This document shows, piece after piece, positions 8,548-63,801 of a DNA stretch of 64,000 bases. The notes under the pieces are model-generated. The model did no database searches, had not been told where the DNA came from, and saw nothing but the letters and a program-made list of their open reading frames with translations. Origin of the DNA: Alphaproteobacteria bacterium (GTDB lineage Bacteria > Pseudomonadota > Alphaproteobacteria > CBCXTS01). Both the position numbers and the translations under genes were made by a program. The stretch is from the NCBI GenBank assembly GCA_965178085.1, contig CBCXTS010000021.1, positions 322,048 through 386,047 of the forward strand, given 5' to 3'. How positions within the stretch are numbered: the first letter of the stretch is position 1; every line of letters starts with the position of its first letter.

Positions 8548-8602
8548 ACCAATTACCCATTCATCGCAGCAATCTTTGAACAATAACAAAGTAAGGATCG
8601 CA

Positions 8603-16432: not shown

Positions 16433-16509
16433 GGTGGCTGTAGCTCAGTTGGTTAGAGCGCCTGATTGTGGTTCAGGAGGTCGTCGGTTCAAGACCGATC
16501 AGCCACCCC
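16433..16509 (+). tRNA. tRNA-His (anticodon GTG)
   Basis: Cloverleaf read by eye. Acceptor stem GGTGGCT/AGCCACC, D-arm AGCTCAGTTGGTTAGAGC, anticodon stem-loop CCTGA-TTGTGGT-TCAGG with GTG at positions 34-36, T-arm GGTTCAAGACC, and a 3' CCA. Confidence 0.85.
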
Positions 16510-28325: not shown

Positions 28326-28542
28326 TATTCTAGGATATAGATCAATTGTTTAAGAAACGCCGATTATATAATGAATCGTTGAATTGTAATTAAATTTTAA
28401 TTGAGTTGCCAAAACCTACAATGTGATATTAATAATATTAGCATAGGTATTTTATATATTAATAATCGCTACATAGCCTATAAATATTATCTCGTGATTG
28501 TTTAACATTTGCAACACACATTTTGAGACAAAAATATTTAAT

Positions 28543-36533: not shown

Positions 36534-39440
36534 TTAAGACGCTCTAAAAGGATTTCCTATGATAACACGTAAATAACCTTTTTTATTACTAACACTACGA
36601 AGTTTTAGTTGTAAGTACACAGGATGGCGTTTCTTATCATCAGACCAAAAGCTTGAATATGTTGCCATTTGTACTTCCGGCAATAAAGCTTGAAACAACG
36701 GAATTCCTTCTGTTTCTTGGCGATTAACAAAACTTTTCTGTTGATCTGGAAGTGCTGCACTGATTTTACTTAATGTTCTATCAAAAGCAAACCGCGCTTG
36801 CTCTGGATTATCAAGTAAATAACTGTCTATTTGTAAAGCAACTAACTTGCTATCTATCGTTTTATCAAACTGTAAAATGACATTAACAGGAGACATTTCA
36901 AGCCATTTATTAGCATTTAATTTGCACGCAACAAATTCATTTGCCAATTCTTGACACTTTCCAAGCTTTGATTTTAAGCTATCATATGTATCACGCCAAC
37001 TTAGTCCAAGCATTAAATGATGATAATCACTTTCATATGCAGATAAAACTAATATTTCCTGCATTTCAAGATTGCCAGAAAGCGATGCAAAATATGCTGC
37101 GTTCTGTCCTTGCTTATTTTTAGTTCTAGGATCAGCACCTGCTGCTAAAAGCGTACGTATTTCACTCGTTCTATTAAGAGCTGCTGCGCGCATTAGAGGT
37201 GTATAATCATCATATACCGAGTCTGGATTACTGCCATTTTGTAGTAAATGCTCTAAAAGTCCTCTATATCGCTGATCATTTGCATGATCAATACTAAAAT
37301 GAAGTGCCCTTATTGATGGTTGTAGCCCTGCAGCAACTAAAGCATTTGTCATGTCCCATTGATTTTCAAGAGCAACAAAATCTACTAAATTAAGTCTATT
37401 ATTTCCAAAACTATCCGGTCTATCTAATTGTATATGATCAAGAATTACTCCTTCTGGTCTTTCTTCAATCAATTCACGCAATTTTGTTACGTTGCCATTT
37501 CTTACTGCACGCTCAACTGCACCAGCAAAATCAGCTAGTAATGCACTCCCAGCTCCCGATGGGATTATGCCGGCAAGCTTTTGTCCTGCTTCTAATTTTT
37601 GTATTCGCTTTGGAGAATAGTTATTTGCATATTGATTGTTTATTTCAGATTCAGGGCCAAGTTCAAGGCTTGATTCTGTTCGCGTTATTAAAATTCTATC
37701 TAACTGTGCTTGAATTTTTGGCAACCCATCAGCTACATCCAGAGGTCCCGTTGCACAACCAGGCGATGGGTCTAGCGATGCTCCATAATTTGCTAAAACT
37801 TCAACTACTTCTCTTTGTTCATAGGCAATTGCTGCAGCAATTGGTGTCCAGCAACCTTGTGCTCCACCAGGTACTTCACTAGGAGCGCCTAATTTTAAAA
37901 GACGCTCTAATGCCTTCATCTGCCCTTCAATAGCAAGACGATGCATAATAGAGCGACCATCTCCACTATCAATAGACACATCAGCGCCGCCTTTGATTAA
38001 AAAACTTAACGTGGTTAAGTCTCCTAAATTTGCTGCAATCAGTAACGCTGGTTTTCCATATTTATCTCTTACATTGGGATCAGTTCCTGTCTCAAGTAAA
38101 CCTTTTACTTCAAGAGAGTTTCTAGCTCGTACCGCTTTAATTAAATCTGATTCCGGTAACATTTTACGCGCATCCCGCTCAAGGGAAAACACAACCCTTG
38201 TAGCCACATCTGGATTTGCTACAGTAATGGCCATTCCTGCTGCAATCACACCAACAATCAATCCGCTTGCAAGCGCTGTTCGATTACCTCTAACCTTAGC
38301 AGCACGGCGCTGTCTGGAACGCTGCACTCTTGAATTTGCTGGCAACGGTGCACGCGTACCATTGCGTATAAAAGATTCCCTACTTCGTGACTTTATGTCT
38401 GAGTTTTCTGGGCTGCTACCAAGAGGGTAACCTATTGTTTCATCATTTTTAGATGATTGCCCTTCATACATCGCTCCGCTATCAATGAGTTGCATTTTAT
38501 CGCGCATATTTTGCTGCAAATTATTGCTATCTTGCTCTTGGGGTTGATTAACTTGAGGCTCATGATTGATGTTATTCTTAATAATATCCTTTGACTTTTG
38601 CTCTAAATCATCTTGCTCTTGTTCTGTTAGGACGTTTTCTTTAAGTGAATGATTATCTAACTGCGTGTATTTTTTAATAGTCGCATTGGTATCGAAGTCA
38701 CTATTTAAAGTGTCAGAATCTTCTTGAGACAGTTTGTTTTCTGTCTTTTGTGCATTCTCAACAAGGTTAGAAAGCAATAGCGGCTCAACAGTAGATTGAT
38801 ATGATGGAACAAGGGGGGGGAGGTCAACACGTGTTTTATCTACCAAATCTATATGTACAGCTTGAGTATGATGATTTAGCGTGTTTCTGTACTCATCGTG
38901 CTCTGTAGCTTGTTCTAGATAAACTTCATGCTCTAAAGCTTCTGGTCTATAGCCTTTTCCAGTTAAACTTCTACGCTTGACATAACCGCGATAATCTAGT
39001 TGATCTGTAAATAACTCTTTATCACTCCATAACGACGGTTGGTTTAAGTTTTGATCGTTATTTAGTAATGATAATTGTGGATCAGATCGTACTTCATTGC
39101 TGCTTAGTAGATTTTGTTGCCCGTCTTGAAGAGAACTATCTTTTAAAATTGCAGATGAATTCTGATTGCCAAATGTGCTGATGTTGTTATTATCACTTTG
39201 CAATAAAACCTGTTGGGTCTTGACACCAGTAATACGCGATCTACTTTCTTCAATCAATCGTAACACATCATGCGTATTATCTTGTGTATTAAATGCAATA
39301 TAGCGCTGTGCATTAGCGCTATCATCAAAGCGAATTAAATTAACCCACTGACCAGCCTTGCGTCCTTGCACCAGATATGAGATATTTGCTGTAAAATGAC
39401 GAAACCCTTGTCCGTAACGTTTCAGCGCTTTTTTTACCAT
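36534..39440 (-). CDS. Large ankyrin-repeat protein with a central TM helix
   Basis: 968 aa. The N-terminal 370 aa are polar and low-complexity. A hydrophobic segment (ALASGLIVGVIAAGMAITVANP) is preceded by a basic cluster (RSRQRRAAKVRGNR). At least six ankyrin repeats follow (for example ALLIAANLGDLTTLSFLIKGGADVS and TPLMRAAALNRTSEIRTLLAAGADPRTKNKQGQNAAYFAS). The C-terminus is basic. Confidence 0.75.
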   Translation of the reverse strand: MVKKALKRYGQGFRHFTANISYLVQGRKAGQWVNLIRFDDSANAQRYIAFNTQDNTHDVLRLIEESRSRITGVKTQQVLLQSDNNNISTFGNQNSSAILKDSSLQDGQQNLLSSNEVRSDPQLSLLNNDQNLNQPSLWSDKELFTDQLDYRGYVKRRSLTGKGYRPEALEHEVYLEQATEHDEYRNTLNHHTQAVHIDLVDKTRVDLPPLVPSYQSTVEPLLLSNLVENAQKTENKLSQEDSDTLNSDFDTNATIKKYTQLDNHSLKENVLTEQEQDDLEQKSKDIIKNNINHEPQVNQPQEQDSNNLQQNMRDKMQLIDSGAMYEGQSSKNDETIGYPLGSSPENSDIKSRSRESFIRNGTRAPLPANSRVQRSRQRRAAKVRGNRTALASGLIVGVIAAGMAITVANPDVATRVVFSLERDARKMLPESDLIKAVRARNSLEVKGLLETGTDPNVRDKYGKPALLIAANLGDLTTLSFLIKGGADVSIDSGDGRSIMHRLAIEGQMKALERLLKLGAPSEVPGGAQGCWTPIAAAIAYEQREVVEVLANYGASLDPSPGCATGPLDVADGLPKIQAQLDRILITRTESSLELGPESEINNQYANNYSPKRIQKLEAGQKLAGIIPSGAGSALLADFAGAVERAVRNGNVTKLRELIEERPEGVILDHIQLDRPDSFGNNRLNLVDFVALENQWDMTNALVAAGLQPSIRALHFSIDHANDQRYRGLLEHLLQNGSNPDSVYDDYTPLMRAAALNRTSEIRTLLAAGADPRTKNKQGQNAAYFASLSGNLEMQEILVLSAYESDYHHLMLGLSWRDTYDSLKSKLGKCQELANEFVACKLNANKWLEMSPVNVILQFDKTIDSKLVALQIDSYLLDNPEQARFAFDRTLSKISAALPDQQKSFVNRQETEGIPLFQALLPEVQMATYSSFWSDDKKRHPVYLQLKLRSVSNKKGYLRVIIGNPFRAS

Positions 39441-43298: not shown

Positions 43299-44738
<1,440 letters not shown>

Positions 44739-44759
44739 TTAGTCAATTTTTTGAATAAA

Positions 44760-45680
44760 TCAGAGCGCCTCAGCACCTGAAATAATTTCAATTAGTTCTT
44801 TTGTAATTTGCGCTTGTCGAGTTCTATTATAGGTAATCTGTAATTTGTGAATCATATCGCCAGCATTACGAGTTGCATTGTCCATCGCAGTCATGCGCGC
44901 ACCTTGCTCTGATGCAAAGCTTTCAAGCAAAGCTCTAAACAATTGTACCGAAATATTTTTAGGCAAAATCTGTTTAAGAATTTCATTCTCATCAGGCTCA
45001 AACTCATATACCGCATTCTGTGATGCATCTATTTTTTCGTAATTGTTTTGCTTATCATCTTGTTCGTCATTGTCTTGTAACGTCACACCTGTAAAAGGAA
45101 TTAACCCAAGTAGAGTAACCGTTTGTGTTAGCACTGAAATAAAACGATTATAAACCAAGCTACAAACATCAAACTCCCCATTATCGTAAAGATGATGTAT
45201 TCTTTCAGCTATCTTTTCAGCATGCTCAAATGCAGGAGTAGGTTTGCATAAATCTTCATAAACCTCAACAAATCGATCGCTATATTGACGCCTCAATTGT
45301 ACCGAAGCTTTACGCCCTATAATAAAAAGCTTAACTTGCTTGTCTTGTGATTCAAGCATTTCGATTCTTGCTTTAACATCGCGCACGATTGACCCATTAA
45401 AGCCACCACATAATCCTCTATCGGATGAGATAACAATCAATAAATGAATGCGATCTTTGCCATTTCCTACCAACAAACCTGGCCCGTTGCCTGACTCACC
45501 TACTCCTTGAGAAAGGGCCGATATCATAGATTCCATTGCCACAGCATAAGGTCTTGCGCTCTCTGCATTCTCTTGTGCACGGCGCAATTTTGCAGCTGCT
45601 ACCATTTTCATTGCGGATGTAATCCGTTTGGTAGACTGTACACTTGAAATTCTAACACGCAGTTCTTTCAAACTAGCCAT
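44760..45680 (-). CDS. atpG: F1 ATP synthase gamma subunit
   Basis: 306 aa with characteristic N- and C-terminal helices (ITKELIEIISGAEAL). Confidence 0.95.
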   Translation of the reverse strand: MASLKELRVRISSVQSTKRITSAMKMVAAAKLRRAQENAESARPYAVAMESMISALSQGVGESGNGPGLLVGNGKDRIHLLIVISSDRGLCGGFNGSIVRDVKARIEMLESQDKQVKLFIIGRKASVQLRRQYSDRFVEVYEDLCKPTPAFEHAEKIAERIHHLYDNGEFDVCSLVYNRFISVLTQTVTLLGLIPFTGVTLQDNDEQDDKQNNYEKIDASQNAVYEFEPDENEILKQILPKNISVQLFRALLESFASEQGARMTAMDNATRNAGDMIHKLQITYNRTRQAQITKELIEIISGAEAL

Positions 45681-45757
45681 TGATATCTTCCGCCATTTAC
45701 ATTCTTCATTGCATTATAGAGCCAATAATCATTGTTATACCTAAAGCAGTCACTTTC

Positions 45758-47287
45758 TTAAGAGAAATTCTTAATAAAACCTTCTAAGATTTTCTCTATT
45801 TGTTGTATCGAATCATCTGACAATTCTGATGTACTGTCAATCGTATCTAACAACTGTGAATGTTCTGATCGTAGTGCATTTAGCAAATCACTTTCAAACT
45901 TACGCACATCTCCAATCGCAACTGTATCAAGATATCCTTTCGTTCCAGCATAAATAACAATCACCTGCTCAGAAACTTTAAGTGGGCTATATTGTGGTTG
46001 CTTTAATAATTCTGTCAGCCTAGCACCTCGTGCCAATAACCTCTGCGTAGCTGCGTCAAGATCAGATGCAAATTGTGAAAAAGCTTCCATTTCGCGATAT
46101 TGCGCGAGTTCGAGTTTAACCGAACCTGCTACCTTTTTCATAGCTTTTGTTTGTGCTGCAGAACCTACACGGCTAACCGATAACCCTACATTAATAGCAG
46201 GTCGAACGCCTTTATAAAACAAATCTGTTTCTAGAAAAATCTGTCCATCGGTAATTGAAATAACGTTCGTTGGAATATACGCCGACACATCATTAGCTTG
46301 AGTTTCGATAATAGGCAGCGCCGTTAAAGATCCAGATCCATTGTCTTTATTAAGCTTTGCAGCGCGTTCAAGTAAACGTGAATGAATATAAAACACATCT
46401 CCTGGATACGCTTCGCGCCCTGGAGGACGGCGCAATAACAAAGACATTTGCCTATATGACACTGCTTGTTTAGAAAGATCGTCATAAATGATCAATGCAT
46501 GCATGCCATTATCTCTAAAATATTCACCCATTGCGCACCCTATATAAGGCGCTAAAAATTGTAATGGTGCAGGATCAGAAGCTGTTGCAGCAACAACAAT
46601 AGTATATTCCATTGCTCCGCGTTCTTCTAATGTTTTTACAACTTGTGCAACGGTCGAGCGCTTTTGGCCAATTGCGACATAAATGCAATAAAGCTTTTTG
46701 CTTTCATCTGTTCCAGCATTAATTGGCTTTTGGTTCAAAATTGCATCAATTGCAACGGCTGTTTTGCCAGTTTGACGATCACCAATAATCAATTCACGCT
46801 GCCCGCGACCAATCGGCACTAGAGCATCAAGTGCCTTTAAACCTGTTTGCACAGGTTCATGCACAGACTGTCTTGGGATAATGCCAGGAGCTTTAACTTC
46901 AGCTAATCTGCGTTCTGTATTTTTTAACGCTCCTTTACCATCAATAGGATTTCCAAGTCCATCAACAACGCGACCCAATAACGATTTTCCAGTGGGCACA
47001 TCAACAAGTGACCCTGTGCGTTTAACTGTATCGCCTTCTTTGATATCTCGATCAGAGCCAAAAATAACAACACCTACATTGTCATCTTCTAAATTGAGTG
47101 CCATCCCTTTAACATTATCAGGAAACTCAAGCATCTCTCCTGCTTGCACATTATCTAGACCATAAACACGAGCAACACCGTCTCCAACAGATATAACCTG
47201 TCCGACTTCTGCCATGTCAGTTTCATTGCCAAAATTGGCAATGCGTTCTTTTAGTAAAGAAGAAATTTCTGCGGCGCGCAGTTCCAT
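45758..47287 (-). CDS. atpA: F1 ATP synthase alpha subunit
   Basis: P-loop GDRQTGKT. 509 aa. Confidence 0.97.
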
Positions 47288-52695: not shown

Positions 52696-53700
52696 TTATG
52701 GCGAAAGGCCAATAAATGTTCCACTATTTTTATTTGTAATCTCGCGCATTAAAATAGAATAACGTTCAGAACCACCAAATCCTATACCATGTACTTTAGC
52801 TTTTGGTTTGCCTGTAATGACATCACGATTTAACATGTTAAGCGTTTGAACAACTTGGTCATAAGACACCCTATCATTAAAATCATCTCCAAATATATAA
52901 ATTGATAAACTTACACCAGGCTTTGCATAAGTTTTCAGTGCAGTTACAAGTCCCTCGACAGGTGAACTGTTAGAATCAGGCGTCCATCTTGACAAAAAAT
53001 TAAGTGCATTTTTACGCCGCGCTTTCGAATCTTTTATCCACTTACCCTTAGTGTTACTTACCAAATAGCGACCATTATCATTCATGATTTGAAAACCTTT
53101 TACAATTGGATGCGCAGTTAAAATATTATCAAGAAGCCGCAAAAGTGTAGGTTTAAATTTATCCATACTGCCTGAGGTGTCTACAATAAAAATAATGTAC
53201 TCGCTATCAACAGGTATCCCTCCAATTTCTTTAATTGGCTTATCAGTTGGTTTGTTGGCTTTTAAAATACCAGCTTTTTGAACAGCATTAGAATCGGCCA
53301 TACTAACCGATGAAAGCTTTTGTTGTTGGCGTATAATATCTTCATTTGCTCGATCAAGTGTATCTAGTTGTTGGTTGAGTTCTTCTAATGTTTGTTCTAA
53401 ATTTGGTAAAGATTGCTGAGTATTAGCGTGAGTTTGCTGTTGGCTATTTAATTTACTCTTAGCTTTAGAAATTTTATGGCTTAATTGGTTAACATGTTTT
53501 TCCAATGCAATAACTTCTGATAGCAATTCTGTTATCACCGCTACATCAGTACTTGCAACGACCTCAGTTGAATCAGATTGAATTGGTTGTGAATTGCCCT
53601 TCGAGATTAAAACCAATAACACCACGGCACCAAATCCACACGATATAATATCTAGAAAAGATAGACTAAAAATTTCAAGAACAGTGCGTTTTTTTTTCAT
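52696..53700 (-). CDS. Single-pass membrane protein with an ExbD/TolR-like Asp-containing TM helix, a coiled coil, and a periplasmic vWA domain with MIDAS (paralogue 2)
   Basis: TM helix LEIFSLSFLDIISCGFGAVVLLVLI, compared with TolR PLLDVLLVLLLIF. The TM helix is followed by about 100 aa of heptad-rich sequence. The vWA MIDAS is FIVDTSGSMD (DxSxS), with a Thr in GLVTAL and an Asp in IFGDDFND. Confidence 0.7.
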   Translation of the reverse strand: MKKKRTVLEIFSLSFLDIISCGFGAVVLLVLISKGNSQPIQSDSTEVVASTDVAVITELLSEVIALEKHVNQLSHKISKAKSKLNSQQQTHANTQQSLPNLEQTLEELNQQLDTLDRANEDIIRQQQKLSSVSMADSNAVQKAGILKANKPTDKPIKEIGGIPVDSEYIIFIVDTSGSMDKFKPTLLRLLDNILTAHPIVKGFQIMNDNGRYLVSNTKGKWIKDSKARRKNALNFLSRWTPDSNSSPVEGLVTALKTYAKPGVSLSIYIFGDDFNDRVSYDQVVQTLNMLNRDVITGKPKAKVHGIGFGGSERYSILMREITNKNSGTFIGLSP

Positions 53701-53713
53701 AAAATTTTATCAC

Positions 53714-54832
53714 TCATGGCCAACTTGGCGCAGGTGTCATTAATATACCTTGCGTTTTAAATGCCCATTGCCAATACATATTAGCAGCTTGAGGGTCGCC
53801 CTCCATTGGAAGCAAGACAATGCTCACTGGGACATTAGCACCAAAACTTTCCTTAACAGCGCTTTGTAATAATTGCTGTCGGCATTCCCCTGATATTGTT
53901 TTACGGTTTAATACACACCGTGAAAACACAGTGCTTGAACCTTGCGTTGGCAAACCATCTGTTACAATGTAAAGGTTTGTAATAGCAGGGTTAATCTCTT
54001 TCATTTTTCTTAATCCTGCTGCTAAGTTTGTAGCGTTTTCAGGAATAAAATCATCAATATTTTTTTGCAGTGCAGCAATATCTTGTGCTTGTGTTGTGCG
54101 CATTAACTGCTTTGGTCCCATCATATGCGCTTCTTGATTATAAAATACTACTGAAAACTCTGAACTTTCTGGTATGTTTGACAAAAGCCAATTTATAATG
54201 CGCTTCGTTCTGATCCATTTGGGACCTGCTTTTTTATCACTAGATTTTTTAATTTTACGTGCAATAATATCAATTAACTTTTCATCTGTCATTGAAGCAC
54301 TAGCATCTATTAGCAAACCAATGCGTTTTCCTTCTACAGAAAGACCAAGTAAATACTGCTCTGTTTCTTTGCCTTTTGTTTGAATATTATTTTTTGCTAA
54401 TTTTTGGCTTTCAGATTGCTGTTTTATTTTTTTTTCAATAAATTCTACACGCTGTTTTGTAAGTTCTTCAAGTTTTGTACGCGATTGATCAATATTTTGC
54501 TGTTTTTGAGAAAGCGTTGCTTGTTTTGCTTGAACATCTAAACGCAGTTTTTGAACCTTTTGCTCTGTTACAATATGCTGCTTCAACTGCTTTTCATACT
54601 GAGCATCTAAATCTATCAATGTCTGTTGTAAATTTGTAGCATGTTCAGATAATGATTTGATGTCCAAACGCAATTGTTGCGTTTGAGTTGACACTACTTC
54701 TTCTGGGGCATTAAGGTCTATCTCTGGATCAAACTTTACCAACATTAAAATTAATATAACCGCGCCCAATCCGCATGACATAATATCTAAAAAAGCTAAA
54801 TTAAAACTCTCAATAATTTTTCTTGAGCGCAT
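53714..54832 (-). CDS. Single-pass membrane protein with an ExbD/TolR-like Asp-containing TM helix, a coiled coil, and a periplasmic vWA domain with MIDAS (paralogue 1)
   Basis: TM helix IESFNLAFLDIMSCGLGAVILILMLV, about 65% identical to its paralogue's TM helix. A coiled coil of about 120 aa follows. The vWA MIDAS is LLIDASASMTD, with NATNLAAGL and YIVTDGLPTQ. Confidence 0.7.
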   Translation of the reverse strand: MRSRKIIESFNLAFLDIMSCGLGAVILILMLVKFDPEIDLNAPEEVVSTQTQQLRLDIKSLSEHATNLQQTLIDLDAQYEKQLKQHIVTEQKVQKLRLDVQAKQATLSQKQQNIDQSRTKLEELTKQRVEFIEKKIKQQSESQKLAKNNIQTKGKETEQYLLGLSVEGKRIGLLIDASASMTDEKLIDIIARKIKKSSDKKAGPKWIRTKRIINWLLSNIPESSEFSVVFYNQEAHMMGPKQLMRTTQAQDIAALQKNIDDFIPENATNLAAGLRKMKEINPAITNLYIVTDGLPTQGSSTVFSRCVLNRKTISGECRQQLLQSAVKESFGANVPVSIVLLPMEGDPQAANMYWQWAFKTQGILMTPAPSWP

Positions 54833-54841
54833 TAGATTTTA

Positions 54842-55585
54842 TTAAACCCTAATTTTTGTCAAAAGATTCCGTTCGCAATATTCTTGAATGGCTACTAGAG
54901 TTTTTTCTTGTTCTTTTTGTAATTGATACAATAAAAACATTAAAATTAAGCTGATAAACAACGCAACGAGCGTTGAATTAAATGCCAATCCTAAGCTTTG
55001 TGTCATCCCGGATATATTTCCAGATAATGCTTGATCTGCCTGAGCAAGTGCTTGGCCTATGCCGCGTACTGTACCTATAAACCCAATAGATGGAACTGCC
55101 CAAATAATATAACGTATCATTGCATTATCTGAATCTTGCTCAAGCGATACATCTTCAATTGTAGAGCGCACGCACTCGCTGGTGTTATGGACATTTTTTG
55201 TGCTTTTAAAATGCCTAAGACTTGATATAACAACCCGCATCAGTGGAGTTTCACGCTCACGATGCTCAAGCGATTCAAGCCTATTCAACAATTGATCAAT
55301 GTTTTGAGTATCTTCTATAACATTGACATAATATTGATGTTTATTGCTCGATATTTGTAAAATTTTTGATAAAATAAGATAACTTCCCCATAAAAGCCCA
55401 ATCAAACATATCTCTTGTTCTAGATCTTTTAAAATAACAAATATATTTCGTGGCGCCGAAAGGCCTTCAGCATATGCGGCTTGTATCGCACTGTCTGCAT
55501 TAGGATGGATAAACCCTAAATAAACCACATGTACTAAAACGATTGAAAGTGCTAAAGCAATAAGGCTTTTCACCATTGCTAACAT
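54842..55585 (-). CDS. MotA/TolQ/ExbB-family proton channel protein
   Basis: 247 aa. The conserved C-terminal helices AVPSIGFIGTVRGIGQALAQ...GMTQSLGLAFNSTLVALFISLILMFLLY are diagnostic of the family. Confidence 0.85.
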   Translation of the reverse strand: MLAMVKSLIALALSIVLVHVVYLGFIHPNADSAIQAAYAEGLSAPRNIFVILKDLEQEICLIGLLWGSYLILSKILQISSNKHQYYVNVIEDTQNIDQLLNRLESLEHRERETPLMRVVISSLRHFKSTKNVHNTSECVRSTIEDVSLEQDSDNAMIRYIIWAVPSIGFIGTVRGIGQALAQADQALSGNISGMTQSLGLAFNSTLVALFISLILMFLLYQLQKEQEKTLVAIQEYCERNLLTKIRV

Positions 55586-55599
55586 GTTAACTGTCTCCT

Positions 55600-55743
55600 T
55601 TAAATATCAATGGGAAATGAAACTGGCGCGTCAATACTAATCACTTCTTGTCCATATGCAAGAACAGCGGTTATCAATAAAATTAAAACAAACAAAAACA
55701 AATAAAACTTCTGTTTTTTATTATTTTTCAATAATTGCATCAT
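55600..55743 (-). CDS. Unannotated 47-aa single-TM peptide between the FGE-fold gene and the MotA-like gene
   Basis: Manual minus-strand translation gives MMQLLKNNKKQKFYLFLFVLILLITAVLAYGQEVISIDAPVSFPIDI*. It is below the ORF-track length cut-off. It lies 14 nt upstream of the MotA-like start and is on the same strand as the operon. Confidence 0.35.
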   Translation of the reverse strand: MMQLLKNNKKQKFYLFLFVLILLITAVLAYGQEVISIDAPVSFPIDI

Positions 55744-55796: not shown

Positions 55797-57842
55797 TCAT
55801 TGAACATTCATCACTGATCTTGCAATACGAAAGCCAATCTTATCACTTGGATTGCGACCAGCTTTACGATAACTGGCTCGAAGTTCTCTCAGTGTAGCGC
55901 TTGCCCAACTTGAACCTTTCACAACATGTTTAAGAGAATTGCTATGATTTGGTTGAGGGCCCATCGGATCAGTATATACTTTTTGATTAGGTTTAGCAAA
56001 ACTATACAAATCATGTGTCCACTCACTAACATTACCAATCAAGTCATAAATTCCAAGAATATTTTGCTTGAAACTTCCTACTGGGGCAGTTTTGATATAC
56101 CCGTCTTGATAGTTTGGGATCATACGCTTTGTTGTACCTTGAGCTGAAGCATCTGCTAAATTGCCTGCCTGCTTTGGAACGGTACTATCATCGCCCCAAA
56201 TGAATTTTGTTGTAGTGTCTTTTCCTGCTTTACGCGCTAACCATTCCCATTCTGCTTCCGTTGGCAATCTGTATCCATTGGCCTTAGCATTATAGCCTTC
56301 ATATTTCCCATCAGCATTAAATCGATAGAATTGTTGCAAACCTTCTTTTTGACTAAGCCAATTGCAAAATTCTGCTGCTTGATTCCAAGTAATATTAGTA
56401 ACTGGCAATTGATCTAGTGATGCGTGTTCTATATTAAAAGCTTGATATTGTTTATTAGTAATTTCATATTTGCTAATTGCTAATTGCTTTGTAAACTGTA
56501 TCTGGCGCAAATGTTCATTCCTAATGCGTCCTTTTTCATTAGCAGGGCTTCCAATTGTTATTGCATCAGGCATAACATTAAGCATTACAATGCCAAGTTT
56601 ACTGGCAAAATGTTGATCCGCTTGATCTTGTAATATTTCAGACAAGCTTTTTAGTTCTATATTGAGCGCAAGCGCTTTGTTGTAACTTAACTCTATTTCT
56701 TGCTTAAATACCTGATAACCTGGAGCTTTTGCTTGTATTGTATATGTTGCCGCTGGGATGTCTATTGATATTGGAGTTTTAGCAAATAGTTGACCATCGA
56801 TATAAATATTTGCTCTTGGTTTACTTGTAATCGCCAAAGAACCTATTGCTTGTTTAAGGTCAAATTCAATAACTTTTAATTCACCAGGTAAAAGTTTAAT
56901 ATTGTTTGTTGCCTTTATATAACCATCTTTTTCATAGTTAATTTCAAGGGCTTTATTCGATACAAAAGACTGAGCTTCAGAACCATCTACAAGCTTGTTA
57001 TTAACCAGCAACTGCCCTCCTTCAGGGTATAATATAAAATCTATATATGCCTTTTTAGGATTTAAAATATAATGGCGTTCAATCACTGATTGGTCCACAG
57101 TGATATCAATTAAGTCATATCTCGTATCATATCCTTTAGATTCTATTGAGAGTTGATGCTTTCCTGGTTTCATTTTCAAATTCTGTGGCGTTGTTCCAAC
57201 TACATTTCCTTCAATATATAAAGTCTGCCCTGTTGGTTTTGAAGTCACTTTTAATGACCCTTCAACGGCTTTTAGCTGAAAAAACAAACGATGCACTCCA
57301 CCTCGTTTGGTGACTATCTTTTCACTGATTGGTTGATAGTGCGGATGGCTAACTGATATGGTTTGCTCTCCAACATCTATTGCTTTTGAAAAGCTTACTC
57401 CTTGATGCAGTTGCTCTCCATTAACAAACCATTGCAAACTTGAATCATCTATATTAGTGCTGGCAGTTACTATAGGAGCAATGGGCTCCATATTAATGCG
57501 AAGAGTCTCATCTAAATGTTCATCTAACCTTATTGTTTTTACTACAAAGCCATCTGCTGCAATTTGTATTGTTGTAGGAATAGCACCAATAAAATAAAAA
57601 CCCTTTTCATAAGATATTGCAAAGCCTTCAATTGTATCTATTTCGATATCAATGCTTGCATCATTAGGCTGGATATCTAAATTGACTGAACGCAATAAAA
57701 ACAACCAAACACTAAAAACCAATACAGCAAAAAGCAATACTAAACCATACAACAATGTTGATAGGCCAAACCTCACTTTAGCTTGTTTGAACTGCTTAGT
57801 TATAGGATCAGATGGATGAGAGTGATCAAACTGGCTCATCAC
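55797..57842 (-). CDS. Membrane-anchored protein with tandem PEGA-like beta domains and a C-terminal FGE/SUMF1-fold domain that lacks the catalytic cysteines
   Basis: N-terminal TM helix (FGLSTLLYGLVLLFAVLVFSVWLFLL). At least four PEGA-like repeats (for example GSLKVTSKPTGQTLYIEGNVVGTTPQNLKMKPGKHQLSIESKGYDTRY). The FGE domain is NITWNQAAEFCNWL...YRLPTEAEWEWLA...GNVSEWTHD...VKGSSWASATLRELRASYR...IGFRIA. No Cys occurs where FGE carries its catalytic Cys pair. Confidence 0.8.
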   Translation of the reverse strand: MMSQFDHSHPSDPITKQFKQAKVRFGLSTLLYGLVLLFAVLVFSVWLFLLRSVNLDIQPNDASIDIEIDTIEGFAISYEKGFYFIGAIPTTIQIAADGFVVKTIRLDEHLDETLRINMEPIAPIVTASTNIDDSSLQWFVNGEQLHQGVSFSKAIDVGEQTISVSHPHYQPISEKIVTKRGGVHRLFFQLKAVEGSLKVTSKPTGQTLYIEGNVVGTTPQNLKMKPGKHQLSIESKGYDTRYDLIDITVDQSVIERHYILNPKKAYIDFILYPEGGQLLVNNKLVDGSEAQSFVSNKALEINYEKDGYIKATNNIKLLPGELKVIEFDLKQAIGSLAITSKPRANIYIDGQLFAKTPISIDIPAATYTIQAKAPGYQVFKQEIELSYNKALALNIELKSLSEILQDQADQHFASKLGIVMLNVMPDAITIGSPANEKGRIRNEHLRQIQFTKQLAISKYEITNKQYQAFNIEHASLDQLPVTNITWNQAAEFCNWLSQKEGLQQFYRFNADGKYEGYNAKANGYRLPTEAEWEWLARKAGKDTTTKFIWGDDSTVPKQAGNLADASAQGTTKRMIPNYQDGYIKTAPVGSFKQNILGIYDLIGNVSEWTHDLYSFAKPNQKVYTDPMGPQPNHSNSLKHVVKGSSWASATLRELRASYRKAGRNPSDKIGFRIARSVMNVQ

Positions 57843-59418
57843 AAATTACCGTAACTGACAAATGATCCATCTCAATGTCAATTTTTATTGTTTTGCGTAC
57901 CGTCTTATATTTTTTTTTGCTTCCTTCTAAAATATATGTCCCGGGTTTTAACGTGATTTGCTTTTCATCTATGACACCAACATGGCCTACACCTACAACT
58001 TTGACATAAGTCTCATTATCAGAAATAACTGTAATATTAACATTTGCATCATAAGATTTAATAAGAGATTGGAGTCTTTCTAGCCGCTTCGATAATGAAA
58101 GACTTAGCACATTCAAATGCAAAAGTTGATCGTGCGTTTTTTGCGCTTTGCTTCTGATCTTAAAGTCTGTCAAGCGCTCGTGATCAATATCATATCGTCC
58201 TATTTGAGAAAAAGCTGATAGCAGTGTTGTAATTATTTCATCAAATTTTATAAAACGCTCATCGCTACCATAACGTGTGAGAGCATCTTGTGATACTTCT
58301 TTAGCATTAATCCAATGATCATTTTCTATGAATTGTTCAATCTTTTTTAGCTTTTCATCAATGTCTCTATCTTTTAAAAACGTATTAATTTTCTGGTGCA
58401 GATTTTCTGTTTCAATCCGATTAGCCCCAATCATTCGTGCCTTTTCGTATAATTTTACTGCTTCAGCAACATCTTGTTTTTGCAACGCATTTGTGCCTTG
58501 TTTAATGAAACGTTGATATTTTTCTTCTATTATTTGCTGATGTAGTTTTTGTATTTTTATTTGGATACCATCTATCTCAGGATCAAGATTTGATAATGCT
58601 TTCAATAAACTATGTTCTAATTTTATGTCATCATTGTCGCGGGCTTTTACTATTTGATGCTGTAGATCTTGAATTTTTGGTAAATTTTTAATCCGCTGCT
58701 GCAATACTAAAGCTTCTTGCGATTGAGGGTTGGTAGTAAGTGCATAATCAATTGCTTCTACGGCTTGCTTATAATTTCTTGACTGGAAATTTTGCTGCGC
58801 TGATAAAAAAGCATCATCATATGTTTTATTCCATAAAAAGCGTATATTTTTGATTTTCTGTAAAGCTTGAGTAAGCAATTCTTTGCCAGAGGTGTAATCA
58901 CCTTGCGTGAACATTGCTAGTGCTTGATCATACATTTGCAAAACTTCGTTATATTGGACGTTTTGATATTGAACTGCCCATTGGAGCAAACTTGCATGTT
59001 GTGACAAACTATTCCAATGTTCTTCAAATTTTGCCAATTCCTTTTTAAATTCTGCACTATCTAACTTAGATTGCAACACAGATTGACTGACTTTATTGTC
59101 ATTTGCATCAATATTTGTTTGAATGTCGTCAGGGTATGTATGTGACTTAACAGATGATAAGCCTACTTGGTTTGCCTCAGCCGATGACCTAGATTTTATA
59201 CCATCACCAGTAGAGCCTTCATTATCAGACTTTTCTAATTGGGATGGTGCTCTATTATCTGTTGTATCAGCTTGATTTTCAAAACTAAAATCATCAGCAA
59301 ATCGAATAAAAAAAAGTAACACGAAGGCAAAAACTGTAAAAATAACGCCTACAATCAGCATATGTTTTCTTCTGGCGTTACGCGCTTGTTTGAAATCAGT
59401 AAATTTATTGTCCATCAA
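57826..59418 (-). CDS. Single-pass membrane protein with TPR-like/helical repeats and a C-terminal PEGA-like beta domain
   Basis: TM helix MLIVGVIFTVFAFVLLFFIRF. About 350 aa of helical repeats follow. The C-terminal QITLKPGTYILEGSKKKYKTVRKTIKIDIEMD matches a PEGA-type fold. The 3' end overlaps the FGE-fold gene by 17 nt. Confidence 0.6.
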   Translation of the reverse strand: MMDNKFTDFKQARNARRKHMLIVGVIFTVFAFVLLFFIRFADDFSFENQADTTDNRAPSQLEKSDNEGSTGDGIKSRSSAEANQVGLSSVKSHTYPDDIQTNIDANDNKVSQSVLQSKLDSAEFKKELAKFEEHWNSLSQHASLLQWAVQYQNVQYNEVLQMYDQALAMFTQGDYTSGKELLTQALQKIKNIRFLWNKTYDDAFLSAQQNFQSRNYKQAVEAIDYALTTNPQSQEALVLQQRIKNLPKIQDLQHQIVKARDNDDIKLEHSLLKALSNLDPEIDGIQIKIQKLHQQIIEEKYQRFIKQGTNALQKQDVAEAVKLYEKARMIGANRIETENLHQKINTFLKDRDIDEKLKKIEQFIENDHWINAKEVSQDALTRYGSDERFIKFDEIITTLLSAFSQIGRYDIDHERLTDFKIRSKAQKTHDQLLHLNVLSLSLSKRLERLQSLIKSYDANVNITVISDNETYVKVVGVGHVGVIDEKQITLKPGTYILEGSKKKYKTVRKTIKIDIEMDHLSVTVICDEPV

Positions 59419-59474: not shown

Positions 59475-60740
59475 TTATAAGACAACATCAGGCGTTGTTT
59501 CAGCATCAAATATTCGTTTAAGGTGCGTTCTCCATTGCATATATTGTTCTTTGGCACTGCCTTGCAACTCAACAACTGTATCTTCTAACGTAACAACTTG
59601 CTTGCCAAGGCTAAGTTGTAGAGAATCTCCTAATTCATGAAGATTATCACGATGATATTCGCTTTGTGCACTCAAATTTTGTCCTTCATTCCATGTATAA
59701 ACAGCTGCTCCACCCAACCCTATTGCAAACATTGATGTGTCAACATTGGTATTCGCACCAGCTATAATACTAGCAACAGCGCCCGCAACAGACAAAATGC
59801 TTAATCCTTTTTGTATCATGGCGTCGCGCTCTGCCTCTTGTCTTGCTATATGTTCTAAAAGGGCTTCTTTTTGCCATAAATGATAGGACTCATTCATTGC
59901 TAAAGTGAAGTCTTTATAATTGCTTTGCAGCTTATCAATAAAGGCATTATCATGCTCTCTTAGTCTCTCAATGCGTGCATACATCGGATCATTGTCTGCT
60001 GGCAGACCTAGCAATTCAATTTTTTCATTTTTATCTTTGCCAAGATATTGCCCAAAAGTTTCTTGCGAAAACGCACTGGCAAATTTAATATTTGTAACAT
60101 GCTTGATATTTGTAAGCTCTTGTTTGGAATGCTTCTTTAAAAGCCTAACAATATGTTGAGCGGCTTCATCAAAAGCAGGTTGATATGAATCTTTATGGTC
60201 ATTCCTTGGATCTTGATGAAAGCTTTCTTCTATTTCATGTTCAAATATTTTTTTATCCCAAACATTTCCAAGACTATCTCTGATATCAAGCTCAAACTTG
60301 ATCTCTTTAGCGTTTGATTGCAGTATTTTTCCAAAAACATACAACTCTCCTGCTACTTGATCATTTGGCACTACACGTACTGCGCCGAATGCGCTGGTGT
60401 TTTCTAGAGATTCTTTTAACTTAAGCGGAAATCTATTTGCTTCAGCGCGTCGCAACTCAGGCCAAATATTTTCTTCTTTATAGCTTTGACTATCTTCAGG
60501 CAAACCAGGATCAAACGTTATCAACATGACATCAAGAAAAACTGATGAAGGATCTTCTTGTATCTCAGGCTTTTTTTTATCAAACAAAAGTCCTAAGTTG
60601 CTTCCTAGACTACCCGACGAACTATCCTTAGAGTTGCTCGATAATGATGATGTTTGACACCCTGATAAAAGCATCAATAGTAATATTGCTACAACAGTAG
60701 TTGCAACGCTAAATTTATTTTTATTGCATAGATGTATCAT
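59475..60740 (-). CDS. Lipoprotein of unknown function
   Basis: Lipobox LLLMLLSGCQTS. 421 aa of mixed alpha/beta sequence with a hydrophobic segment near residue 330 (LSILSVAGAVASIIAGA). Confidence 0.6.
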   Translation of the reverse strand: MIHLCNKNKFSVATTVVAILLLMLLSGCQTSSLSSNSKDSSSGSLGSNLGLLFDKKKPEIQEDPSSVFLDVMLITFDPGLPEDSQSYKEENIWPELRRAEANRFPLKLKESLENTSAFGAVRVVPNDQVAGELYVFGKILQSNAKEIKFELDIRDSLGNVWDKKIFEHEIEESFHQDPRNDHKDSYQPAFDEAAQHIVRLLKKHSKQELTNIKHVTNIKFASAFSQETFGQYLGKDKNEKIELLGLPADNDPMYARIERLREHDNAFIDKLQSNYKDFTLAMNESYHLWQKEALLEHIARQEAERDAMIQKGLSILSVAGAVASIIAGANTNVDTSMFAIGLGGAAVYTWNEGQNLSAQSEYHRDNLHELGDSLQLSLGKQVVTLEDTVVELQGSAKEQYMQWRTHLKRIFDAETTPDVVL

Positions 60741-60762: not shown

Positions 60763-61395
60763 TTAATATTTTCTATATTCTTCCCATAATTTTTTTTGCA
60801 AATCAGGATCTGGTTCATTAAGGGCTTTATTATAAATGATTTTCTTAATAACTTCATCATTATTTGGAGCAACGATATCTTGAGGCACTATCTTTGATGC
60901 CGATGCTTTCCCTTGCCTATCTGTAGAGCCTTGATTCTGCTGGCTTATTTGTTCATCATCCAAACCCGCTTGTATTGCTTCATCACCAGATAAAGTTGGT
61001 GCATCTTGTACAGACAAATCATTCTGTGAAAAATCCGATTGCTGCGTTCCTGAAACATCATCTACTGCAACTGTTGAAACATTTTGACCTGTTTGTGATT
61101 CAAAAGCATCGCTTTGTAAGGCACTATCTCCATTTACATCCCCAGACAAATTAGCAGCTGCTTGCGTATTATCTTGTTGACAATCATCTCTTGCATCAAT
61201 GGATGCAAATAGAGCATCTTCTAATAGTTGTATCCGTTCTTGCGTTGTCAAAGCATCATCATCGATATTACTTAATATATTAACCTCGCAGTTACTGGCA
61301 TATGCACTGTCTTGCATTAGCACTACTTGACTAAACAAATAGATGGCAATAGCAAAGATTAACATTATCAATAAATGAAGCAAATTAATTACCAT
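60763..61395 (-). CDS. Membrane-anchored acidic D/Q/S-rich protein of unknown function
   Basis: An N-terminal signal peptide or anchor (LLHLLIMLIFAIAIYLFSQVVLM) followed by a strongly acidic low-complexity region. It is the first gene of the tight string. Confidence 0.45.
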   Translation of the reverse strand: MVINLLHLLIMLIFAIAIYLFSQVVLMQDSAYASNCEVNILSNIDDDALTTQERIQLLEDALFASIDARDDCQQDNTQAAANLSGDVNGDSALQSDAFESQTGQNVSTVAVDDVSGTQQSDFSQNDLSVQDAPTLSGDEAIQAGLDDEQISQQNQGSTDRQGKASASKIVPQDIVAPNNDEVIKKIIYNKALNEPDPDLQKKLWEEYRKY

Positions 61396-61478: not shown

Positions 61479-62711
61479 TTAAACAATATCTAGCTTTGGA
61501 GATACAATAACAAACTGGCAACCCCACTCGCGAACATGCTGAAGCGTTGCTATAATTTCATCTTTAATATTCCAAGGTAAAATAACAATATAATCTGGTT
61601 GGATGGTGTCTATTACAGTTGGAGATGCAATTGGTATATGGCTTCCTGGGGCTAATTTATTTTGCTTATGTATATTTAAATCTACAATATATGAAATATC
61701 ATCACAGCTCATTTTACAGTAATTCAATAATGTATTGCCTTTTGCAGCAGCACCATAGGCAATAATTTTTTTATTATTTGCGCGTGCCTGTTCAACAAAC
61801 TCAATAAAAGCATCACTTGTTGTAGCAACTCTAGAGGCAAAACTTAAATAAGCTTCTTCACAATCCAATTTTGCATCCATTTCTCTTTCAATGAAGTTAT
61901 GTACTGCTGGTAGCTGTATATGTGCGCTATTTTCATGGCAAACCCACACACGATAAGACCCTCCATGGGTTGCTAATTCTTCGACATCAAAAATTCGTAA
62001 ATCATATTTTTTAAAAAAACCTTGCAAAAACAGCAACGATAAATATGAAAAATGCTCATGATAAATTGTATCAAATTGTGTATAATTTATCAAATTGAGT
62101 AAACTAGGAAACTCAAAGCTAATGACGCCTTGTGTAGCAAGCATTACCTTGAAACCCGCCATAAAACTATGCAAATCGGGAACATGCGCCAACACATTAT
62201 TAGCAATCATTAAGTCTGCTTTAGGGTATTTCTTTAGCAATTCCTTGGCAGTGCTTTCGTTAAAAAAAACACCTTCTGTTGGAATAGATTGATTGCGAGC
62301 TATTTCTGCAACATTTTTTGCAGGTTCAACACCTAAAATAGGTATGTCGTATCCAATAAAATGGCGCAATAGATAACCGTCATTTGAGGCAATTTCAACA
62401 ATAAAATTTGAACGATTAAGCTTGAACCTTTCTACAACATAATGGGTATAGTCTTCTGCATGCTTAAGCCATGTCGATGAATATGATGAAAAATACGCGT
62501 AATGGCTAAATATCGATGATACTGGCACTACATCATCAACCTGTACAAGCAAGCATTGCTTACAAAAGCGTGCGTGCAAAGGATAGTACGTATTTTTTCT
62601 ATCAGCGTATGCAGTCTCAACAAATGCGTTGGCCAAAGGCATTTGGCCTAAATCGACAACTGTTGTAAGCGGACGAGTACCGCAATTTCTACATTGTGGG
62701 TTCATTTTCAT
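61479..62711 (-). CDS. Class I SAM-dependent methyltransferase with an N-terminal Zn-ribbon (sugar C-methyltransferase-like)
   Basis: CxxC...C Zn-ribbon (CRNCGTRP...CKQCLL), a methyltransferase core and a C-terminal C-methyltransferase-type domain. The architecture is that of NDP-hexose C-methyltransferases. Confidence 0.7.
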   Translation of the reverse strand: MKMNPQCRNCGTRPLTTVVDLGQMPLANAFVETAYADRKNTYYPLHARFCKQCLLVQVDDVVPVSSIFSHYAYFSSYSSTWLKHAEDYTHYVVERFKLNRSNFIVEIASNDGYLLRHFIGYDIPILGVEPAKNVAEIARNQSIPTEGVFFNESTAKELLKKYPKADLMIANNVLAHVPDLHSFMAGFKVMLATQGVISFEFPSLLNLINYTQFDTIYHEHFSYLSLLFLQGFFKKYDLRIFDVEELATHGGSYRVWVCHENSAHIQLPAVHNFIEREMDAKLDCEEAYLSFASRVATTSDAFIEFVEQARANNKKIIAYGAAAKGNTLLNYCKMSCDDISYIVDLNIHKQNKLAPGSHIPIASPTVIDTIQPDYIVILPWNIKDEIIATLQHVREWGCQFVIVSPKLDIV

Positions 62712-62883
62712 GGCAGCAAAATTTACGTATGTTCTTACAAGTGATCATGGTGTTTTTTATAAATAATAGTAAATTCATTCATTGAACTTATATCAATCAT
62801 TATATAACAATGTTTAAAAATTTTTGTTTAAAAGTTTTAAAATATATTAAACTATGATCTCCATCAAAGTAATGATTGAATGA

Positions 62884-63801
62884 TCAATGATTGCTAGAAT
62901 GATTTGGTTCCAGAGCTTTTCTACCTATTAAAAAGGCAATACTTCCAAATAAACGGGCACAATCTCGCCAAGATTTTATGAAATTTAGCACTATTAAATA
63001 TCCTACAGACTTTGCAAAAAATTTACATATGTTTCTTGAAGCTAGTATCTGAGCTGATTTTTTTCCTTTATATTTACACTCAATATATAGTCGTGACCAA
63101 GCTATGTGCCAAAACTTTTCCCAATAATACATCTTGCTAGGGCGCACAGACCCTCCCCCAGTATGTTTGGCAATGGCATTGGGTATTAGCATTAATGAAA
63201 AGCCTTTCTCACGCAAGCGCATGCAAAGATCATCATCTTCATAATATAAAAAAATATTCTTATCAAAAAAACTGATTGAACGTAGATACTCTACTCTTAC
63301 CAAAACTATAGCACCTGAAATAAACTCAGCGCAAAGTGGGCCTACAGGAAATATCTTTTGCTTATCTTCTCGTGGCAATCGATGCCTTTTAAATAAGCCC
63401 ACATCATGAGAATATTCAAACAAATTCTTATCATTCTGCAAACTAGGTCCCAACAATGCTGCATTTGAAAAACGATCTGCAGATTCAACCAATTTTTGCA
63501 AAGTTTCTCGTGTAATCAAACTATCAGGATTGATTAATAGAGCATATTGGGTTGTAATGCTTTTTAATCCTATATTCATAGCATTGCCATAACCAACACC
63601 AACTTTATTGCATATTAATTTGGCACTTGGCATTTTTGTATTAATAATATCGCGTGTATCATCATCTGACCCGTTATCAACAATAACAATCGGAAGATCA
63701 CTAGGTAAGCTATCAAGTAAATTTGTAATCACCATACCTGAATTATGTGTAACGCTTAATAATGTAACGCGCGCTTGATTCTGTGCATATAAAATATCCA
63801 A
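62884..63801 (-). CDS. Family 2 glycosyltransferase
   Basis: N-terminal GT-A signature LSVTHNSG...IVIVDNGSDDDT and a DxD-type motif. The start is a TTG. An in-frame stop lies 5 codons upstream. Confidence 0.75.
   Translation of the reverse strand: MDILYAQNQARVTLLSVTHNSGMVITNLLDSLPSDLPIVIVDNGSDDDTRDIINTKMPSAKLICNKVGVGYGNAMNIGLKSITTQYALLINPDSLITRETLQKLVESADRFSNAALLGPSLQNDKNLFEYSHDVGLFKRHRLPREDKQKIFPVGPLCAEFISGAIVLVRVEYLRSISFFDKNIFLYYEDDDLCMRLREKGFSLMLIPNAIAKHTGGGSVRPSKMYYWEKFWHIAWSRLYIECKYKGKKSAQILASRNICKFFAKSVGYLIVLNFIKSWRDCARLFGSIAFLIGRKALEPNHSSNH

Follow-up and report, generated by a model that had tools for sequence, protein, structure and literature searches.

Why would a protein with the fold of a formylglycine-generating enzyme (FGE) be mounted on a membrane-anchored stalk and encoded next to the gene of a proton channel? 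This question is raised by a 64,000-nucleotide stretch of DNA, hereafter the window, from an alphaproteobacterial assembly (GenBank GCA_965178085.1; contig CBCXTS010000021.1, positions 322,048 to 386,047), in which one open reading frame (ORF), here called c05, encodes in order an N-terminal membrane helix, a beta-sandwich stalk and a C-terminal FGE/SUMF1-fold domain (Table 1). A first-pass annotation, made from the letters alone, had proposed that this domain lacks the catalytic cysteines of FGE and is used structurally or for binding. Our analysis confirms the lack of the cysteines, supports such a role and places c05 in a conserved cassette, leading us to propose, with a probability of roughly 0.6, that c05 has no catalytic function and serves as a structural or binding subunit in an envelope machine of eight proteins, powered by a TolQ-like proton channel.

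The FGE-fold domain of c05 lacks the catalytic cysteine pair

Pfam detects the FGE-sulfatase family (PF03781) over residues 430-675 of c05 with E 2e-41 (142.8 bits vs. a cut-off of 23.3), and all of the motifs that the first-pass annotation had quoted for an FGE/SUMF1 domain are present in the ORF. An AlphaFold model of residues 400-681, based on a 57-sequence alignment, reached a predicted local distance difference test (pLDDT) score of 93.3. When this model was compared with the PDB using Foldseek, the top match was TvpA (2y3c; E 1.9e-18), with PvdO second (E 1.4e-17), followed by the human, T. curvata and S. coelicolor FGEs (E ~1e-15 to 1e-13, TM-score 0.64-0.68), CarF (E 1e-13), pFGE (E 1.6e-12), CalU17 and ToxD (E 3e-12) and PorK (E 5e-12). 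Query-normalized TM-scores of the matches listed here were 0.5-0.69. As modeled, the fold is certainly that of FGE, and it favors no single functional subfamily.

We then examined the active site. The whole of c05 contains a single cysteine, C493, in the motif FCNW, and therefore no catalytic cysteine pair exists under any alignment. To assess conservation, the FGE domains of 76 orthologs were taken from related loci and aligned (A3), and residue equivalences were obtained by aligning the profile of A3 to human FGE chains. Human C336 corresponds to Ser648, in a column that holds Ser in 60/76 and Thr in 11/76 orthologs (71/76 Ser or Thr), and human C341 corresponds to Leu651 (Leu in 39, Arg in 13 and Ile in 13 of 76). 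Human R349 corresponds to Arg659 (Arg in 70, Lys in 6 of 76). At the C336 and C341 columns, cysteine was found in 0/76 orthologs; the only column of the alignment that bears cysteine is that of C493, where it occurs in 58/76. The first-pass annotation had itself raised the concern that a conserved pair might have been misaligned by eye; a protein with a single cysteine leaves no room for such a pair.

Other parts of the domain are strictly kept. N561, D580, D600, G603 and E607 are invariant (76/76), and at the sequence level they align with the residues of human FGE that coordinate Ca2+ at its two structural sites, which we take to be N259/D273 and N293/G296/E300. Judged from these alignments, the c05 domain keeps the FGE scaffold and, probably, calcium, and it has lost the FGE copper site. 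Since the copper-binding cysteine pair is missing in c05 and in all 76 orthologs, the alignments indicate that c05 cannot carry out Cys-to-formylglycine conversion, in keeping with the structural or binding role proposed for it at the outset. Public entries for relatives of c05 read "PEGA domain-containing protein," "SUMF1/EgtB/PvdO family nonheme iron enzyme" (a name given by NCBI) or [quoted passage not shown]; the last of these names is wrong for the family because the cysteines are absent.

The second of these names, together with the rank of PvdO in the fold search, could be taken to mean that the domain is still an enzyme, acting by another chemistry on a periplasmic substrate in the manner of PvdO, EgtB/OvoA, CalU17 or ToxD. 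We consider this very unlikely. The PvdO model (NF051459) gave c05 only 69.3 bits vs. a cut-off of 500, and the EgtB, OvoA and SenA models gave 38.7, 36.3 and 31.7 bits vs. cut-offs of 360, 400 and 420, respectively. The DinB domain of EgtB supplies iron-ligand His residues, and Pfam detected no DinB domain in c05; nor is there any invariant cluster of His or Cys in the 76 orthologs. The best NCBIfam match of c05 was GldK (TIGR03525), at 106.3 bits vs. a cut-off of 350 and over the C-terminal half of the model only.

Domain architecture of c05

The real start of c05 is probably the ATG at position 57839, one codon past the GTG, since the resulting N-terminus, MSQF..., agrees with a 680-residue database entry (P0001) and with the family consensus. 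The sequence of the membrane helix is unconserved, and the tail that precedes it carries the motif D-x-K-[LI]-x-Q-A-[KR]. The same motif is found in c04, the product of the neighboring gene, directly before an equally unconserved membrane helix. From this shared motif one may suspect that the two proteins dock at the same cytoplasmic site, for example on the channel.

In the structure model, the stalk consists of five beta modules (residues 51-117, 124-188, 195-259, 265-328 and 333-396) and not of the four PEGA-like domains counted initially. The last four modules have block-mean pLDDT values of 84-92, while the first is more divergent. The alignment behind this full-length model was shallow (6 sequences), and the model is good for the N-terminal part only, with most of its FGE domain at pLDDT <50. 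Pfam assigns PEGA with E 4.6e-27, and CarboxypepD_reg gives sub-threshold matches on the same beta modules. The modules also match tandem CnaB/Ig-type stalks, such as those of the B. anthracis TIE protein and of Gram-positive pilins. The topology predicted for c05 places its FGE domain in the periplasm, which agrees with the earlier proposal.

c05 belongs to a widespread family and a conserved cassette

The fusion of a membrane anchor, PEGA domains and an FGE domain had been regarded as unusual. When 1.84 billion cluster representatives at 50% identity were searched exhaustively with a profile, however, the 150 best matches listed all scored at least 634 bits, and more than 130 of these 150 align in one stretch that starts within the first 40 positions of the profile and runs to its end. 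A word-indexed search had found ~6 full-length relatives, which would make the family rare, but that search was saturated by FGE-domain words, and the exhaustive search contradicts it. Full-length relatives form two length classes, of ~690 and ~805 residues. In the longer proteins (among them P0043, P0045, P0062 and P0099), the N-terminus is extended by a cytoplasmic segment of 120-180 residues. This segment looks FHA-like by eye; Pfam detected no such domain, and we do not claim one. Separately, at one locus (L086) the gene that follows the channel gene gives a weak FHA match.

Related loci were collected by scanning one genome per GTDB species with the peptide pattern FLD[IV][MI][SAC]CG[FL], taken from the N-terminus of the von Willebrand factor A (vWA) proteins encoded downstream of the channel. 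At least 599 stretches matched, of which at least 585 were confirmed as relatives with the motor signature, and the best 80 of these were used for the locus comparisons. The hosts of the 80 loci are Gamma-, Alpha-, Zeta- and Deltaproteobacteria, Nitrosomonadaceae and Binatia, mostly from marine, sponge and sediment sources, and the highest identity to the window among them is 44%.

Profile searches of all ORFs recovered the gene order c02-c03-c04-c05-c07-c09-c10 in nearly all 80 loci, spanning at least five major lineages. Local order changes were seen in two loci (L053 and L072), and where upstream members are missing, the locus is truncated at a contig end. No locus with sequence upstream of the channel gene lacks c05; in every locus with enough such sequence it adjoins the channel gene, with at most one small conserved ORF in between, which bears out the suggested link to a MotA-like channel. 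In the window, the stop of c04 overlaps the start of c05. The same neighbors as in the window are found in two relatives, one from Flocculibacter collagenilyticus and the other from a metagenome-assembled genome. All-against-all clustering of 2,332 ORFs showed that only the cassette families are conserved, plus antisense shadow ORFs, and that the flanks vary. The cassette comprises eight genes: c02, c03, c04, c05, c06, c07, c09 and c10.

These comparisons bear on whether c05 might be a free-standing surface protein, of the S-layer type or of the kind varied by diversity-generating retroelements (DGRs), that merely adjoins motor genes. Its best structural match is a DGR variable protein, TvpA, and proteins of the TvpA/Mtd type share with c05 a Cys-less FGE/C-type-lectin fold that serves binding only; PEGA domains also occur in S-layer proteins, as the first-pass annotation had pointed out, although we found no support for such a surface association here. 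Against this stand the fixed position of c05 in nearly all loci of distant lineages, among overlapping or tightly spaced genes, and the conservation of its last 40 residues, a region that in a DGR target would be hypervariable: R655, R659, G670, F671 and R672 are kept in at least 70 of the 76 orthologs. No retroelement or reverse transcriptase was found among the conserved cassette neighbors. We therefore regard a free-standing role as extremely improbable.

The cassette encodes a putative TolQ-like motor

We next considered the genes downstream of c05. The channel protein, c07, aligns with its E. coli counterparts such that P165, T172 and T205 correspond to P138, T145 and T178 of TolQ and to P141, T148 and T181 of ExbB, and all three residues are invariant in 83/83 orthologs. 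The two vWA proteins, c09 and c10, are paralogs of each other (~26% identity). Their N-termini consist of a basic stretch and then a helix, F-[SN]-L-S-F-L-D-I-x-S-C-G-F-G-A, the Asp of which is invariant in both families (83/83 for c09 and 81/81 for c10) and aligns with the essential Asp of TolR/ExbD. An invariant Cys also stands beside this Asp, in the S-C-G of both transpore helices. The coiled coil that follows was seen as SMC-type matches, and the vWA domains contain metal ion-dependent adhesion site (MIDAS) residues (D176, S178, S180, T268 and D292 in c09; D174, S176, S178 and D272 in c10), with the DxSxS motif invariant in both families. No tolR, exbD or motB gene is present in the cassette. 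Because of this absence and the motif alignment, we assign c09 and c10 as putative TolR/ExbD-like partners of the channel.

At most loci, the helix Asp and the MIDAS Asp are ~135 residues apart in both paralogs (interquartile range 135-137). Outliers (given for c09 and c10, respectively) include the window, with 160 and 157 residues, L001, with 150 and 142, and L002, with 144 and 139; in the window, the stalks of both proteins are ~22-25 residues longer than the norm. This joint lengthening is suggestive of a heterodimeric coiled coil.

A defense-system identity for the cassette was also considered. PADLOC, applied to seven of the cassette proteins, returned only a weak ZorA match on the channel (E 1.3e-4) and coiled-coil noise, and the candidate was rejected.

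A small conserved protein precedes the channel gene

The small ORF between c05 and the channel gene, c06, has the sequence MMQLLKNNKKQKFYLFLFVLILLITAVLAYGQEVISIDAPVSFPIDI in the window. An ORF of this type, ending in [IF]-S-L-[ND]-S-P-x-[ST]-F-P-V-D-I-stop, occurs in the same place in 69 of the 80 testable loci. The encoded proteins are ~40-55 residues long, and conservation is confined to the last 13 residues. The c06 stop lies 1-3 nucleotides before the channel gene start in 43 of the 69 loci; in the window it lies 14 nucleotides before it, with AGGAG and a 9-nucleotide spacer leading to the channel ATG. Independent gene callers have annotated c06 elsewhere, as a protein of 54 residues in L085 and of 67 residues in L002. 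In the literature searched, we found no description of c06.

It is conceivable, if unlikely, that c05 is the receptor of this protein. What was once the substrate groove of the FGE domain, with Ser648 in place of Cys336, would then bind the SLNSPxSFPVDI end of c06, and this pair of a pseudo-enzyme and a pseudo-substrate would gate or assemble the motor. A precedent is CxPxR, the short Pro-containing peptide that true FGE accommodates in this groove (Roeser 2006, cited in PMC12421860); c06 is encoded right after c05 in the 69 loci, with only its end conserved; and Ser648 and its neighbors K642, G643, G649, L654 and R655 are strongly conserved in c05. However, the c06 motif has neither the Cys nor the Arg of the FGE recognition motif, and the conserved residues of the Ser648 region are structural in all FGE folds. 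The MIDAS sites of the vWA proteins, given that the peptide ends in Asp-Ile-COOH, and the tetratricopeptide repeat (TPR) protein c04 are equally plausible partners for the peptide.

Comparison with known systems

We compared c05 and its cassette with the systems that they most resemble. As in PorK/GldK, the FGE-like fold of c05 lacks both catalytic cysteines, PorK being a docking hub beside a 5:2 motor (PMC12421860), and its gene lies directly upstream of putative proton-driven 5:2-type motor genes, with a dimeric subunit that would span the periplasm. The differences are considerable. c05 has a transmembrane anchor and no lipobox, with no Cys before residue 493, and it carries a five-module stalk. 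Its FGE domain is compact (~250 residues), and the insertion domains with which PorK binds PorN and builds its ring were not found in it. It adjoins a MotA_ExbB-family channel and two vWA genes, not porL/porM (gldL/gldM); no PorN-like gene was found among the conserved cassette neighbors; and the hosts are Proteobacteria and Binatia, not Bacteroidota. In a single-sequence phmmer search of the PDB, PorK came first (1e-16), whereas with the family profile human FGE (5.8e-27) was just ahead of PorK (4e-25). Since the two are about equally distant by the family profile, we claim no special relationship to PorK. The comparison with GldK and PorK made in the first-pass annotation thus stands as an analogy of function, which is how we read the resemblance, and not as family kinship, given the equal profile distance to human FGE and the absence of the defining PorK features.

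FGE (SUMF1) and pFGE (SUMF2) have the same fold, with the presumed Ca2+-ligand positions kept, and pFGE likewise lacks the catalytic cysteines. In c05, in contrast to FGE, the Cu(I) ligands are replaced by Ser648 and Leu651; c05 is also tethered to the membrane by way of a stalk, and its gene lies in a motor operon. No sulfatase gene was found among the conserved cassette neighbors.

The cassette shares with TolQRA and ExbBD-TonB a TolQ/ExbB-family channel with conserved pore threonines, as well as an inner-membrane-anchored protein that extends toward the outer membrane. It differs in that the vWA proteins would take the role of TolR/ExbD and in that the periplasmic domains of c04 and c05 are unrelated to those of TolA/TonB.

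The closest precedent for the motor itself is a predicted one, in which tolQ homologs co-occur tightly with heterologous pairs of transmembrane helix-tethered vWA proteins, with no tolR gene and with a function described there as unknown (PMC12204202; Mol Biol Evol 2025). Like this TolQ-like motor with transpore-helix (TPH)-vWA proteins, our cassette has a tolQ-like gene without tolR/exbD, followed by a heterologous vWA pair, and in both a proton-binding Asp in the vWA-protein helix faces a ring of Thr. We match the two by arrangement and motifs; the published family was seeded on Idiomarina. The FGE-PEGA protein, the lipoprotein, the transmembrane TPR protein and the small FPVDI protein are not mentioned in the text of PMC12204202, in which the words FGE, sulfatase and PEGA occur 0 times. 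More generally, nothing that links c05 with this motor was found in the literature searched.

A proposed envelope machine

How might these proteins work together? We propose that the N-terminal helix would anchor c05 in the inner membrane and that its five modules, of 3.5-4 nm each, would form a stalk of an estimated ~18-20 nm, holding the Cys-less FGE-fold head, probably stabilized by Ca2+, toward the peptidoglycan and the outer membrane. The helices of c09 and c10, each with its invariant Asp, would sit as a heterodimer inside the TolQ-like pentamer, and a coiled coil of 100-125 residues (~15-19 nm), of matched length in the two proteins, would lift their two MIDAS-bearing vWA heads. Since the coiled coil and the c05 stalk are of similar length, we infer that the FGE head and the vWA heads stand at a similar height, near the peptidoglycan and outer membrane, where the lipoprotein c03 would also be found. 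The FGE head may serve as a docking surface for the vWA heads, for c03, for the C-terminal peptide of c06 or for a cell-wall glycan. The motor would then turn proton flow into movement or force against the FGE head, a role that would parallel that of PorK beside PorLM.

A more specific version of this proposal can be put forward tentatively, as a possibility that we rate well below the general one. The cassette may encode an undescribed proton-driven trans-envelope nanomachine in which the vWA heterodimer is moved inside the TolQ-like pentamer and its MIDAS heads work against an array of FGE heads and the outer-membrane lipoprotein c03, with the FPVDI peptide serving to couple or gate. If true, a Cys-less FGE fold would have been joined with a 5:2 motor a second, independent time, in addition to type IX secretion and gliding, which could reflect either convergence or an old evolutionary link.

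Less probable still, in our view, is that c05 is a cell-wall anchor, whose PEGA stalk and lectin-like FGE head attach to peptidoglycan or to some other envelope glycan and so fix the machine, or the static part of it, in the manner of the OmpA-like domain of MotB, instead of docking a protein. The FGE-sulfatase domain is a binding scaffold that adopts the C-type-lectin fold, and PEGA has been treated as peptidoglycan-associating (PMC7159879). We also found no recognizable peptidoglycan-binding domain in the vWA proteins or the channel, so that a fixed point would have to come from elsewhere. However, no glycan-binding residues were identified in c05, the binding of PEGA to peptidoglycan is itself inferred in the literature, and PorK and TvpA, in which the Cys-less FGE fold is well characterized, have proteins or varied ligands as their binding partners.

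Several observations weigh against c05 being the docking subunit of such a machine. The physical contacts of c05 within it are proposed from genes and from single-chain models. As for the parallel with PorK, superposition gave a TM-score normalized to PorK of 0.34-0.36 with a root mean square deviation of 14-17 Å, and the family profile places c05 at least as far from PorK as from true FGEs. Since the domain is compact and the likeness is limited to the shared fold, a PorK-like ring is not implied. On the motor side, the SHLS/His motif that docks TolA and TonB onto the pentamer is absent from the transmembrane helices of c04 and c05, and the first 60 residues of six vWA proteins gave no ExbD match in Pfam at E up to 10. 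The stalk lengths of c09 and c10 correlate with a Pearson coefficient of 0.65, carried by four outlier loci, and the Spearman correlation was not significant.

Other cassette members and genomic surroundings

The remaining members of the cassette are encoded upstream of c05 (Table 1). For the lipoprotein c03, no sequence relative was found in the PDB and no consistent Pfam match among 42 members. The conserved C-terminal PEGA-like domain of c04 has a nearly invariant Cys526 in V-I-C-D-E; this residue and the Cys beside the Asp of the vWA transpore helices may have disulfide or membrane-embedded roles.

Table 1. Positions of c05, its parts and the other cassette genes, numbered from the first letter of the window.
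Feature	Position	Strand	Description
c05	55797-57842	(-)	Target ORF; 681 residues counted from GTG
c05 membrane helix, residues 23-49	57696..57776	(-)	Predicted; preceded by a basic cytoplasmic tail
c05 stalk, residues 51-396	56655..57692	(-)	Five beta-sandwich modules, the last four PEGA-like
c05 FGE/SUMF1-fold domain, residues 430-675	55818..56555	(-)	From Pfam, AlphaFold model, Foldseek and profile alignment
c05 codons Ser648 to Leu651	55890..55901	(-)	Ser648 and Leu651 at the positions of human FGE Cys336 and Cys341
c02	60763..61395	(-)	First cassette gene; N-terminal signal or anchor, low-complexity acidic region, conserved C-terminal stretch of ~70 residues
c03	59475..60740	(-)	Lipoprotein of ~420 residues; invariant lipobox Cys28
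c04	57826..59418	(-)	Transmembrane anchor, TPR repeats, C-terminal PEGA-like beta domain
c06	55600..55743	(-)	Small ORF of ~47 residues; signal peptide or transmembrane anchor; conserved C-terminus ISIDAPVSFPIDI
c07	54842..55585	(-)	TolQ/ExbB/MotA-family channel; PF01618, E 1e-12
c09	53714..54832	(-)	TolR/ExbD-like helix with Asp16, coiled coil, vWA domain with complete MIDAS
c10	52696..53700	(-)	Paralog of c09; TolR-like helix with Asp17, coiled coil, vWA-like domain

Two loci (L001 and L002) represent a Flocculibacter-type variant with extra genes. These encode an upstream TPR protein, a cytoplasmic protein of 416-617 residues between the channel and vWA genes, two small products that are lipoprotein-like by their N-termini, and an M48 peptidase. 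The extra genes are lineage-specific additions, and c08, c11 and c12 among them gave no informative Pfam match. In the window, the cassette sits among glycosyltransferase and C-methyltransferase genes, which are not conserved neighbors elsewhere; since the flanks differ between loci, these genes are not parts of the cassette. A scan of the operon for promoters and terminators gave counts at chance level.

The window is chromosomal and contains mrdA (1769-3631), aspS (16709-18514) and a tRNA gene (16434-16507), as well as glnE (28498-31422) and atpA/atpD (43299-47287), with a G+C content of ~36%. A side survey covered the parts of the window outside the cassette (1-52000 and 61479-63801). There, two ORFs of 968 residues (25419-28325 and 36534-39440, both on the minus strand) and one of 571 residues (8540-10255, plus strand) had no NCBIfam match at E 1e-10 or better.

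Implications

Ion-driven 5:2 motors such as MotAB, ExbBD, TolQR, GldLM and ZorAB drive envelope processes of very different kinds, and new biology has come with each new output module of these motors. To our knowledge, type IX secretion is so far the only setting in which a Cys-less FGE fold is paired with a 5:2 motor. A second pairing, in Proteobacteria, would bear on how the FGE fold has been recruited as a mechanical docking element.

The motor pair of the cassette has already been predicted (PMC12204202), whereas in the literature searched we found neither its FGE-PEGA partner nor the small protein. These two provide handles on the function of the motor, the first as an obligatory partner that is not a sulfatase-maturing enzyme and the second as a micro-protein encoded before the channel gene. 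The cassette is self-contained and widespread, with the motor signature in at least 585 species genomes, many of them from marine, symbiont and sediment sources. Since its carriers include culturable hosts (Pseudoalteromonas, Glaciecola, Rheinheimera, Alishewanella, Sneathiella and Magnetovibrio blakemorei), it is open to experiment. The value of c05 thus lies in its membership of a strictly conserved and widespread cassette, together with a TolQ-like, vWA-tipped motor, a TPR protein, a lipoprotein and a micro-protein.

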